A DNA stretch of 5,243 nt from a virus (IMGVR_UViG_2671180556_000001:1-5243), one strand, 5' to 3'; positions 827 through 5,227 are shown, counted from the stretch's first letter. Notes: a model not told the origin generated them from the letters alone. Translations and numbers: made by a program.

Positions 827-916
827 TTGACGCGATGATTTATTCGGGGCTATATTCCTCACGCGCCAGCAAAATCTGGCGTCGGGATTAGCACCCCGGA
901 TATCGAAACGGTGCAT

Positions 917-937
917 AACCGCGCTGGCGGTTTTTTT
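917..937 (+). terminator. Candidate rho-independent terminator downstream of ninE
   Basis: Perfect 6-bp stem AACCGC (917-922) / GCGGTT (927-932) with a 4-nt loop GCTG, followed by a T run through 937. Confidence 0.5.
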
Positions 938-1101
938 ATGCGCTAAGCACAGTCACATTCGCGATTTATGGCGGGCTGTGTGGGGGAGCCGAAAGGCTCG
1001 CCGGATGTTTCGACCGGTAGTGCTAACCCCGCACAGTTCGCCACCACGATGATTAGCACCTGACGGTGGCGAGGTAAAAATTATCGAAACGCGAGGTCAT
1101 T

Positions 1102-1779
1102 ATGGCTGTTCAAATTTCTGTCGAAAACCTTTCCCCTGTTACCTATAACCAGATCCCCGTAATTACTACTGAACTGTTGGCTCACCTTTACGGAACAAAA
1201 ATCAAAAACATTTCTGATAACTTTCTGAACAACACGACGCGATTCATGCCCGGAAAGCATTACTTTAAAATTGAAAAAAACGAATTACGCGAGTTTAAGA
1301 ACAGACCCGAAACAATCGGGTTAGTTGGTAAAAATGCCCGCTCCCTCATCCTCTGGACAGAACGCGGCGCAGCCCGTCACGCAAAAATGCTCGAAACCGA
1401 TCAGGCGTGGGATGTGTTCGAAAAACTGGAAGACTGCTATTTCAGCCAGTGCGAGAAAAATACTGGCAAACAAGAGAAGAAGCTCAACGGGCTTTCCGCA
1501 AAAGAAACAGACAGCCTTGTATGGCTGTGGGATTATGCCAACCGCTCACAGGCATTGTTCCGTGAGTTGTATCCCGCATTAAAACTGATTCAGTCTGGCT
1601 ATTCCGGCATATGCCACGACTACGGCTATGAGTTCTCGTATATCATCGGGAGGGCGAGAGACGTTTTAATCAATCACACACGAGATGTTGATATTAATGA
1701 GCCAGACGGACCAACGAATCTTTCCGCATGGGTAAGGCTTAAGAACAAAGAATTACCTCCTTCACTACATCGCTACTGA
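1102..1779 (+). CDS. ORF6N/KilA-N-like domain protein (putative phage DNA-binding regulatory protein)
   Basis: 225-aa ORF with a GAGGT Shine-Dalgarno 5 nt upstream of the ATG. The N-terminal region ([16 protein letters not shown] ... [14 protein letters not shown]) resembles the ORF6N domain signature as I recall it. The C-terminal half is unassigned. Confidence 0.65.
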
Positions 1780-1796
1780 CAATTGACAACTTAACA

Positions 1797-1820
1797 AACC
1801 CAGCTTCGGCTGGGTTTTTT
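1797..1820 (+). terminator. Candidate rho-independent terminator after the ORF6N gene
   Basis: 8-bp stem AACCCAGC (1797-1804) / GCTGGGTT (1809-1816) with a TTCG tetraloop, running into a T tract that ends at 1820. Confidence 0.6.
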
Positions 1821-1853
1821 ATTGGTGAATTTTCAATATGAGAGGACATGACA

Positions 1854-3181: not shown

Positions 3182-3849
3182 ATATCTACGAAAGAATTGA
3201 TGGCAGCAAATACCGAAATATTTGGGTAGTTGGCGATCTGCACGGATGCTACACGAACCTGATGAACAAACTGGATACGATAGGATTCGACAACAAAAAA
3301 GACCTGCTCATCTCGGTTGGCGATTTGGTTGATCGCGGTACAGAGAACGTCGAATGTCTGGAATTAATCACATTCCCCTGGTTCAGAGCTGTACGTGGAA
3401 ACCATGAGCAAATGATGATTGATGGCTTATCAGAGCGTGGAAACGTTAATCACTGGCTGCTTAATGGCGGTGGCTGGTTCTTCAATCTCGATTACGACAA
3501 AGAGATTCTGGCTAAAGCTCTTGCCCATAAAGCAGAAGAACTTCCGTTAATCATCGAACTGGTGAGCAAAGATAAAAAATATGTCATTTGCCACGCCGAT
3601 TATCCTTGTAACGAATACGAATTTGGAAAGCCAGTTGATCCTCTGCAGGTAATCTGGAACCGCGAACGAATCGGCAACTCACAAGACGGGATCGTGAAAG
3701 AAATTAAAGGCGCGGACACGTTCATCTTTGGTCATACGCCAGCAGTGAAACCACTCAAATTTGCCAACCAGATGTATATCGATACCGGCGCAGTGTTCTG
3801 CGGAAACCTCACATTGATTCAGGTACAGGGAGAAGGCGCGTGGGCATAA
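3178..3849 (+). CDS. Serine/threonine protein phosphatase (lambda phosphatase-like metallophosphoesterase)
   Basis: Metallophosphatase signature motifs are visible: GDLHG, GDLVDRG and GNHE. The N-terminal sequence ([35 protein letters not shown]) is close to lambda protein phosphatase as I recall it. The ATG overlaps the ninG stop (ATGA). Confidence 0.9.
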
Positions 3850-4328
3850 GAGAACTAAACCTCACCAAAGAACAGCACGAGTGGCTGAATGGCTGGCTTG
3901 AACTGTGGGGCGCATGGGTTTATTCAGGTCGTCTGGAAAAGCGCATGAGCAGCGTAATAGCGAAGTTCATGGAGAGCGTAGAGCCGGGAAGAGTTATGAC
4001 AAGGCCAATGTGTAATGATGATGATGGAATGTTGATTTCTCAGGTCGTCGATTCCGTCATGTACATTGACAAGAAAGCCTTCGGCATCCTCCTCAGCTAC
4101 TACGCTCATGGTTCTTCCAGGCACGCCATTGCATCTTACTATCATCGCGTCGCAAGACCTCGCAAGATGTTATGCCGGGGCGGCGGGCGCATTCAAAAAC
4201 CATCGCTCGCAACCTGTCGACGGGAAGTTGACGAAATCCTTAATGCCTCGTTGTTTATGATTTACCCGGTTCTGGATAGTGCGTTTAAAAACCGGAAACG
4301 TGTAGAGAAAATTAAACATGTAGCATAG
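3840..4328 (+). CDS. Q: Late-gene antitermination protein Q (non-lambda Q family, phage 82/21/Stx-phage type)
   Basis: The product carries the N-terminal LWGAWV motif that I recall from the small Q antiterminator family, and the gene sits directly upstream of a candidate late promoter. GGGAGAAGG at 3828-3836 precedes a GTG start at 3840, overlapping the phosphatase 3' end by 10 nt. The start is uncertain; the next in-frame ATG is at 3945. Confidence 0.7.
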
Positions 4329-4418: not shown

Positions 4419-4493
4419 GGGTCAGTCGTATAAAGGTCATTACGGAAGGCTGTTAACCTTCTTATCGTGGTTCGAGTCCACGCTGTCCCGCCA
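4419..4493 (+). tRNA. tRNA-Asn(GUU)-like gene, 75 nt including encoded CCA
   Basis: Manual cloverleaf: acceptor GGGTCAG/CTGTCCC (one T-T mismatch at pair 4-69), U8, D arm GTAT-AAAGGTCA-TTAC with G18/G19, perfect anticodon stem GAAGG/CCTTC with loop CTGTTAA (anticodon GTT), T arm CGTGG-TTCGAGT-CCACG, discriminator G, CCA. The anticodon loop and T loop resemble E. coli tRNA-Asn as I recall it. Confidence 0.55.
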
Positions 4494-4498
4494 AACAT

Positions 4499-4574
4499 GC
4501 TGGTTTAGCTCCAATGGTAGAGCAACTGACTTGTAATCATCAGGTCGCCAGTTCGATTCCGGTAGCCGGCACCA
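4499..4574 (+). tRNA. tRNA-Thr(UGU)-like gene with imperfect stems, 76 nt including CCA; possibly divergent or a pseudo-tRNA
   Basis: Acceptor GCTGGTT/AGCCGGC (7 pairs, two G-U), U8, canonical D arm GCTC-CAATGGTA-GAGC, anticodon loop CTTGTAA (anticodon TGT), T loop TTCGATT, discriminator A, CCA. The anticodon stem (ACTGA/TCATC) has only 3 Watson-Crick pairs and the T stem (GCCAG/CCGGT) has one A-C mismatch. Confidence 0.5.
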
Positions 4575-4577
4575 TAT

Positions 4578-4652
4578 GCGGGTACCGTATAATGGCTATT
4601 ACCTCAGCCTTCCAGGCTGATGATGCGGGTTCGATTCCCGCTACCCGCTCCA
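4578..4652 (+). tRNA. tRNA-Gly(UCC), glyT-like, 75 nt including CCA
   Basis: Perfect 7-bp acceptor GCGGGTA/TACCCGC, D arm GTAT-AATGGCTA-TTAC, perfect anticodon stem TCAGC/GCTGA with loop CTTCCAG (anticodon TCC), perfect T arm GCGGG-TTCGATT-CCCGC, discriminator T, CCA. The sequence is nearly identical to enterobacterial tRNA-Gly2 (glyT) as I recall it. Confidence 0.8.
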
Positions 4653-4665
4653 GATTTATTATCAG

Positions 4666-4688
4666 GCTCGCTTCGGCGGGCTTTTTTT
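4666..4688 (+). terminator. Rho-independent terminator after the tRNA cluster
   Basis: 6-bp stem GCTCGC (4666-4671) / GCGGGC (4676-4681) with one G-U pair and a TTCG tetraloop, followed by seven T (4682-4688). Confidence 0.6.
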
Positions 4689-4740
4689 GTATCTGCGTTA
4701 CACCATTAACTAATAAATCGAGTGCTTATCAGGAGGCTAT

Positions 4741-4965
4741 GTGAAAAAGCTGATGGTGACGATTGGTCCGTTCGAAACAGAAGTTAGTTTTCGTGTCGTT
4801 CAGGGGGAGAGTGTACTTGTTGAAGATGTATTTCATGGAAAATCAACAGGTCCTTATGTAAAAGAATATTTTGTCGACGCCACGGATGAAAATATTGAGG
4901 TGGTGTACGATTCCGTCAATCACCCTAATTTGATCATTAAGGCAAAATTGAAACCACTTTATTGA
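4741..4965 (+). CDS. Hypothetical small protein (74 aa), unknown function, in the cargo position downstream of the late promoter
   Basis: ORF with AGGAGG at 4731-4736 and a GTG start at 4741 (short 4-nt spacer); stop TGA at 4963-4965. I recognise no motif in the product. Confidence 0.5.
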   Translation: MKKLMVTIGPFETEVSFRVVQGESVLVEDVFHGKSTGPYVKEYFVDATDENIEVVYDSVNHPNLIIKAKLKPLY

Positions 4966-5017: not shown

Positions 5018-5227
5018 ATGTTTGTTGCTGAAGGGGTAATGGAAGATAAGGACAACAAAGGATGTGTTAAAGGTTGGGCTGTGGTAAGAAACTCGCCATG
5101 GCATCTTGTTGGGGTTTTTGCGACAGAGGAAGACGCGGAAATGGAAGCAAGAAAGACGGGAGATGAGTACGAGGTTCACTATGGCTCGCATCGAACAGGA
5201 AGTGATGATTTTGTCTGGGGGGAGTAA
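5018..5227 (+). CDS. Hypothetical small acidic protein (69 aa), unknown function
   Basis: Strong Shine-Dalgarno AAGGAG 7 nt upstream of the ATG at 5018; stop TAA at 5225-5227. The C-terminus is acidic (EEDAEMEARKTGDEYE). I recognise no confident family. Confidence 0.6.
   Translation: MFVAEGVMEDKDNKGCVKGWAVVRNSPWHLVGVFATEEDAEMEARKTGDEYEVHYGSHRTGSDDFVWGE

Follow-up and report, generated by a model that had tools for sequence, protein, structure and literature searches.

Why do 275 bp of apparently noncoding DNA lie between ninE and an ORF6N gene in a lambdoid E. coli prophage? The window, by which we mean the whole stretch of viral DNA analysed (5,243 nucleotides), corresponds to the nin region of such a prophage. 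Genes for a Dam methylase (93-647) and NinE (644-826; Pfam NinE, stop codon at 824-826) are followed by the next long ORF only at ATG 1102, which bears out the gap described in the initial annotation. This ORF (1102..1779, + strand, 225 aa) encodes a putative antirepressor with an N-terminal ORF6N and a C-terminal P22AR_C domain (Pfam), and an intrinsic terminator with a 9-bp stem and a T-run closes the cassette 3' of it (1796..1826, + strand). A gene for a Rha/KilAC protein comes next (1848-2576), and then NinG, a phosphatase, Q (3840-4328) and tRNAs. As 434, HK620, P22 and other cassette-free phages align to the window only up to ∼831, just beyond the ninE stop, the gap represents the left end of an inserted cassette and not an expanded spacer. 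We consider it about 88% probable that what follows ninE here is an antisense-RNA control cassette of the phage P1 immI type, in which, by analogy with P1, two small RNAs and their target sites probably keep the antirepressor gene off. The apparently empty gap would then be explained as a complete post-transcriptional switch guarding an antirepressor. This reading is carried by family membership, RNA fold, complementarity, positions and co-variation, all of which were observed.

The gap is rich in repeats. Two 10-mers occur twice each, GATTAGCACC at 886-895 and 1051-1060 and TATCGAAACG at 901-910 and 1082-1091, exactly where the initial annotation had located them. At least two repeated 10-mers were found in 0.9% of 5,000 dinucleotide shuffles of the 275 nt, and in 0.02% of shuffles two 7-mers from the central RNA had their reverse complements on the upstream as well as the downstream side. 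TTAGCAC is present four times in the window (0.52 expected) and TCGAAAC five times (0.99 expected), in each case with three occurrences within the element. The further copies of TTAGCAC (2675) and TCGAAAC (1391, 4772) were set aside as chance matches, being lone sites that never form an a+b pair. Both copies of a third repeat, GCGAGGT, also exist, the first at 1069-1075 as claimed and the second at 1091-1097, one base away from the 1092-1098 given earlier. The homologous loci examined do not keep this repeat; we therefore rejected it as a functional site, and it is probably a Shine-Dalgarno-like coincidence.

To identify RNA elements, we performed a permissive Rfam scan of the window in which matches were listed to E ≤ 10. 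Within the gap, three curated families occur in the right order, each on the + strand and above its gathering score (GA): c4-a1b1 (RF03163; 850-902, 50.6 bits, GA 46.7), a motif located upstream of C4 RNA; isrK (RF01394; 863-937, 76.6 bits, GA 50); and C4 antisense RNA (RF01695; 964-1048, 75.1 bits, GA 45, E = 6e-14), the last as a full-length model match. The suggestion of a small structured RNA in the initial annotation was thus right, and the gap actually holds two, an IsrK-like and a C4-like RNA, together with target sites. Upstream lies a predicted sigma-70-type promoter (827..856, + strand) with a -35 box TTGACG (827-832), an 18-nt spacer and a -10 box TATATT (851-856). Its hexamers match the consensus at 10 of 12 positions, and the -10 context GGGGCTATATT is kept in homologous loci. 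Transcription is predicted to start at ∼863, where the isrK model begins.

The IsrK-like small RNA, or a1/b1 leader of a C4 precursor (863..937, + strand), was delimited by the isrK and c4-a1b1 matches, its fold and its terminator. It comprises hairpin 1 (863-882), hairpin 2 (883-898) and an intrinsic terminator (917-932 plus a U-run to 937), the latter being the terminator already recognized in the initial annotation, which here ends the IsrK-like sRNA. In the predicted fold, site a1 (GATTAGCAC, 886..894, + strand; core TTAGCAC at 888-894) is displayed in the loop of hairpin 2, and site b1 (TCGAAAC, 903..909, + strand) is single-stranded. These two sites are complementary to the segments a' and b', respectively, of the C4-like RNA.

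The C4-like antisense RNA (+ strand) is predicted to have mature ends at 970 and 1045, by analogy with P1 c4. It consists of a 17-bp basal stem (969-985/1027-1043), hairpin 1 (986-999), which is the GAGCC-GAAA-GGCTC hairpin with its GAAA loop noticed before, hairpin 2 (1000-1018) and an ACCA tail (1043-1046). Its minimum free energy (MFE) is -48.6 kcal/mol (z = -6.6), and the MFE structure equals the consensus fold. RNAalifold analysis of 16 homologues gave 27 base pairs, 14 of which show compensatory changes, and the variable unpaired columns of this alignment are exactly a' and b'. Segment b' (GTTTCGA, 1007..1013, + strand), the partner of b1 and b2, occupies the 9-nt loop of hairpin 2, and a' (GTGCTAA, 1020..1026, + strand), the partner of a1 and a2, lies in the unpaired stretch that links hairpin 2 to the basal stem's 3' strand. 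The latter is the inverted partial repeat of the initial annotation, which grows to 12 nt with 92% complementarity between 883-894 of the IsrK-like RNA and 1020-1031 of C4; 903-909 additionally pairs with 1007-1013. The order of the segments is consistent with antiparallel pairing, as the targets run a then b and C4 runs b' then a'. The GG at the predicted C4 5' end (970-971), the acceptor-like stem and the ACCA tail are compatible with an RNase P substrate.

The second pair of target sites lies in the leader of the antirepressor (ant) mRNA. Site a2 (GATTAGCAC, 1051..1059, + strand; core TTAGCAC at 1053-1059) starts 5 nt past the predicted C4 3' end and 2 nt past the end of the Rfam match at 1048, in the same relative position as a2 of P1. 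Site b2 (TCGAAAC, 1084..1090, + strand) is located 2 nt before the Shine-Dalgarno sequence GAGG (1093-1096) and 11 nt before the ATG at 1102. The a'-a2 and b'-b2 duplexes comprise 7 bp each. With C4 1003-1031, the IsrK-like RNA reaches a duplex energy of -31.9 kcal/mol compared to -19.0 kcal/mol for the leader, and this longer complementarity fits a role as decoy or anti-antisense RNA. RNAcofold of C4 with either the leader or IsrK gave no net stabilization, which is uninformative as loop-loop kissing is beyond this method.

Several smaller features were seen around these contacts. Between a2 and b2, a conserved copy of C4 5'-strand sequence, GGTGGCGA (1065..1072, + strand), is complementary at 8/8 positions to the C4 3' strand TCGCCACC (1038-1045). 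Their pairing would form an alternative hairpin with a2 in its 19-nt loop, with a weak fold (1036-1075, z = -1.8); GGTGGCGA is present in most loci, and a C/T difference co-varies. A constant GA precedes the TT of every a site across loci (886-889 and 1051-1054 in the window) and faces a constant AACC in C4, giving an A-C mismatch flanked by pairs, possibly a non-Watson-Crick element conserved in the a contact. Within the ribosome footprint, GTCGAAA at 1120-1126 (ant codons 7-9) is complementary to C4 1008-1014, overlapping b'. This is probably a coincidence, as homologues that have other b' types show a similar coding sequence.

The same order of promoter, a1, b1, terminator-like hairpin, C4, a2, b2 and start codon is found in phage P1. 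The gap between a1 and b1 measures 7 nt in P1 and 8 nt in the window, that between a2 and b2 22 and 24 nt, and the distance from the end of b2 to the start codon 10 nt (icd ATG) and 11 nt. P1 likewise has a' in an unpaired stretch and b' in the loop of hairpin 2, its b2 coincides with the ribosome-binding site (RBS), an antirepressor follows downstream, and its C4 scores 69 bits in Rfam compared to 75 here. Mature P1 c4 starts with GG and ends with ...CCACC, for which G970 and C1045 are the equivalents in the window. The P1 record NC_005856 annotates a1, b1, c4, a2, b2 and icd with the label 'repression of icd ant translation'. The P1 a1/b1 leader (locus L010, 48230-48311) matches c4-a1b1 above threshold (51 bits) and the isrK model below GA (35 bits, E = 4.5e-6), and a terminator-like hairpin precedes c4. 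As the P1 leader matches the isrK model, the IsrK sRNA is, judged by sequence, the a1/b1 leader of a C4 precursor. However, the two cassettes are not identical: the window lacks icd or an icd-like small gene between C4 and ant, so that b2 directly precedes the antirepressor gene, which encodes an ORF6N/P22AR_C protein and not P1 Ant. Moreover, the P1 c4 promoter bears a C1 operator and none is known at the window promoter, the window cassette resides in a lambdoid nin region whereas P1 is a plasmid prophage, and the two have different a/b specificity sequences.

Transcription, processing, repression and anti-repression in this prophage can be proposed from experiments with P1/P7 and the Salmonella prophage Gifsy-1. 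The predicted promoter at 827-856 would start RNA synthesis near 863, and the terminator at 917-937 would stop most transcripts to yield a ∼75-nt IsrK-like sRNA with a1 in a hairpin loop and b1 single-stranded. Transcripts reading through would hold the C4-like RNA (∼970-1045), which, as in P1, may be excised by RNase P to repress ant in trans and confer immunity. Its unpaired b' loop and a' segment would pair with b2 and a2 in the antirepressor mRNA leader. As b2 adjoins the Shine-Dalgarno sequence, the b'-b2 pairing would block ribosome binding, keeping the antirepressor off and lysogeny maintained, in P1 with premature termination as well; Biere, Citron and Schuster are said to have reported in 1992 that the translational block by C4 also gives Rho-dependent termination before ant. 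The IsrK-like RNA, presenting the same two sites in a longer complementary context, would titrate C4 and free the leader, as Gifsy-1 IsrK has been shown to do, and the variable a/b sequences would set the specificity, or immunity type, of each cassette. For P1/P7, C4 is described as being cut from the operon transcript by RNase P, with the b' loop occluding the RBS and a' adding specificity (PMC5320573; notes of the P1 record).

To examine whether the pairing segments evolve together, we compared related loci. The isrK/c4-a1b1/C4 trio, or a pair of these families, was also found in 17 related phage loci and in P1. In 16 curated loci (E. coli Stx phages, phiV10, phiP27, Klebsiella, Salmonella and Aeromonas phages, an Actinobacillus-labelled phage, APSE-7 and P1), the a'/a1/a2 and b'/b1/b2 sequences differ among loci yet change together in all of them, and in a cross matrix of the 16 loci, cognate matches fill the diagonal and non-cognate ones are rare. 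As an independent sample, we searched IMG/VR with a pattern that fixed conserved stem bases only, which retrieved 45 distinct a'/b' combinations. A cognate a2 was present in 45/45 of these variants, b2 in 41/45, a1 in 39/45 and b1 in 34/45; a2 and b2 together were found in 41/45 for the cognate but 0/900 for non-cognate comparisons. With the distance taken to the first ATG after b2, the end of b2 lies 6-16 nt from the start codon in 36 of 38 independent loci (mode 10), often overlapping the Shine-Dalgarno sequence. The downstream genes are of antirepressor type (Rha 12, ORF6N 6, Bro-N 5, Derepression 4, and P22_AR and AntA), and in P1-like contigs of the survey the downstream gene is icd-sized.

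This co-variation fits antisense-RNA specificity determinants and not operators of a conserved protein. The initial annotation had favoured such operators, bound by the adjacent ORF6N or Rha-family protein. Direct repeats close to a promoter-like site would indeed suit DNA sites for ORF6N/P22AR_C, Rha/KilAC or a prophage repressor, and the C1 operator on the P1 c4 promoter makes protein control of a cassette promoter conceivable, although away from the repeats. However, the repeats are reverse-complementary to unpaired segments of the intervening RNA and co-vary with them in a three-way manner, they are not palindromic, and the a-b spacing is unequal (8 versus 24 nt), as in P1. Both site pairs lie downstream of the promoter, one of them at the RBS, where an antisense RNA would act, and proteins of such unlike families as Rha, Bro-N, ORF6N and AntA all accompany the same architecture. 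We therefore regard operators as very improbable. The annotation had also proposed to discard the repeats if they were not conserved in related phages. Their sequence does vary, but position and complementarity are kept, so that this rule would have wrongly discarded a real element.

Equally improbable is that this prophage has ceased to express or use the cassette, which would then be a remnant in decay. Defective prophages are common in E. coli, and the best match of the whole window in complete E. coli genomes reaches only 96.4%. Against decay, each of the six interacting segments is intact and matches its partners perfectly, and promoter, terminator, Shine-Dalgarno sequence and the full-length ant ORF are likewise intact. 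Moreover, the inducible phages phi24B and JLK-2012 have identical or 99-100% copies of the element, and 109 records among the complete E. coli genomes contain it at no less than 99% identity.

A less remote, though still improbable, alternative comes from the Gifsy-1 locus isrK-orf45(STnc1160)-anrP-isrJ. As here, this locus belongs to a lambdoid prophage and has, after a member of the isrK family, a C4-like RNA and an antirepressor gene, and a short terminated sRNA carries sites that pair with the C4-like segment. IsrK provided in trans increased anrP translation 139-fold (Hershko-Shalev et al. 2016, PMC4825925), and compensatory mutants prove pairing of the middle of IsrK with the downstream region (PMC4825925). 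By way of the Gifsy-like phage SW-37, we infer that the published pairs G28/C162 and G31/C159 map onto a1 TTGGCGT and a' ACGCCAA. Unlike the window, Gifsy-1 carries antQ upstream, whereas Q lies 2.7 kb downstream here (3840-4328), and isrJ after the antirepressor gene; isrJ had no match in the window at E ≤ 10, and the same model does find it in SW-37. The C4-overlapping ORF is 31 aa long here and does not adjoin ant, and the specificity sequences differ. The Gifsy-1 study compares its locus with P4 CI/seqA/seqC and not with P1-type C4 (PMC4825925).

On the Gifsy-1 model, a1 and b1 would pair with a' and b' in cis within the read-through transcript, with no need for a free processed C4, and translation of an ORF overlapping C4 (ATG 968 to TGA 1063, 31 aa), opened by IsrK acting in trans, would be coupled to that of ant. 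This is the published model for the closest characterized IsrK locus (PMC4825925), 16/16 loci share the ATG in the 5' strand of C4, and a 31-aa ORF does exist at 968-1063. A processed RNA from the downstream region of Gifsy-1, STnc1160, was detected as well, and the paper left its role unassigned (PMC4825925). However, the ORF from the invariant ATG ranges from 14 to 64 aa or is fused with ant, and it stops within C4 in P1, APSE-7 and others; with frame ends varying this widely among homologues, we rejected ORF 968-1063 as a conserved coding gene. In the window this ORF lacks a Shine-Dalgarno sequence, and 38 nt separate its end from the ant ATG, a poor arrangement for coupling. As icd is also missing, neither of the published coupling routes (icd, orf45) transfers literally. 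The predicted MFE structure of 863-1115 retains the C4 fold and the IsrK hairpins instead of an a1/b1:a'/b' helix, and a switch in cis leaves unexplained why a2/b2 are retained, co-vary and, in 41/45 variants, are positioned at the ant RBS. The reading we prefer is a C4-like antisense RNA that would act on the leader in trans.

Related RNA switches further place this antisense cassette. In APSE phages of Hamiltonella (LR794146), isrK and C4 families are annotated with a'/b' marked (Rouil et al. 2020, PMC7313666). There the cassette lies upstream of a Bro-N and then a Rha gene, an arrangement as in the window, and a/b co-variation holds, but host clade, downstream protein family and specificity sequences differ. 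The sar RNA of P22 immI does the same job, as a small antisense RNA that blocks antirepressor translation (PMC12197685). In contrast to sar, the regulator in the window lies upstream of its target on the same transcript and makes two short loop-target contacts, and the Rfam scan of the window to E ≤ 10 listed no match to the sar model. The same logic is described for P4 CI RNA with seqA/seqC, where a small RNA processed from the leader of its own operon pairs with sites on both sides (PMC4825925). In P4, however, this leads transcription of the replication operon to terminate prematurely and does not control an antirepressor RBS.

The cassette type is already known, widespread and ordinary, and the present copy is real and functional-looking. 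Members of the family were found in 1,700 of 5,426 complete E. coli genomes, with up to six cassettes per genome in poly-lysogenic E. coli. Among the best-scoring matches listed from complete E. coli genomes, none has a RefSeq annotation under the cassette, and the element is unannotated in phi24B (99.6%), JLK-2012 (100%) and the 109 E. coli records; the phi24B counterpart of the antirepressor gene, 3' of the element, is annotated as Ant. The switch is a possible induction route in Stx-type lambdoid prophages, and phi24B carries a nearly identical element. In several GenBank records, CDSs are laid over the RNA cassette (L009 1173-2195, L011 2467-2535, L004 1498-1740 and L016 959-1208), including an 'Ant' extended too far, with its start upstream of C4, and small 'hypothetical proteins' that cover isrK/C4. 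They are probably annotation errors to which the invariant ATG of the C4 stem gave rise.

The practical value of the assignment thus lies mostly in annotation; it also joins work on Salmonella IsrK to work on P1 C4. C4 was reportedly described in 1990 by Citron and Schuster, with P1/P7 immI also said to be treated by Hartmann et al. in 1995, and IsrK reportedly between 2008 and 2016. In the literature searched, the two RNAs are still handled as separate items. The motif list of Weinberg et al. 2010 includes c4-a1b1 (PMC2864571), a 2025 review gives IsrK and c4 as separate entries (PMC12197685), and Tree et al. 2014 mention neither IsrK nor C4. Rfam leaves isrK out of the C4 clan CL00128, even though isrK overlaps c4-a1b1 in every locus examined.

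The IMG/VR sample contained 19 a' types in its 45 a'/b' combinations, and a single a', ACGCCAA, was common to 15 combinations that differ in b'. We tentatively propose, as a speculation more likely to need revision than to stand as it is, that three RNAs from a single promoter, IsrK as decoy, C4 as antisense and the a2/b2 leader as target, make up a self-contained circuit, in which read-through would set the ratio of decoy to repressor and the a and b determinants would reassort independently as a combinatorial immunity code. If so, the prophages of a poly-lysogen could insulate or cross-control their antirepressor switches, possibly including those of Stx phages and thereby toxin induction. 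In addition, some IMG/VR contigs repeat the C4 cassette in tandem every 656 nt, with three copies in L098 (9292-11104) and two each in L065 and L066. In the L065 and L098 arrays, the a'/b' pair differs per unit and the downstream gene encodes ∼120-190 aa. From their sequences, such arrays may be several independent switches side by side.

The region 3' of Q showed further features. A scan for a late promoter and terminator 3' of Q found nothing by the criteria of the tool. Rfam predicts three tRNAs there (4419-4490, 4499-4571 and 4578-4649), of which ARAGORN calls only the first and third, as Asn-gtt and Gly-tcc. By eye, the second resembles a tRNA-Thr(UGU) whose anticodon stem contains a duplicated TCA, and it could be damaged or unusual. 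A strong intrinsic terminator (4664-4693) follows immediately 3' of the tRNA cluster. Past it lie two small ORFs (4741-4965 and 5018-5227) for which Pfam gives no match, and which occupy the spot where Stx phages have stx.
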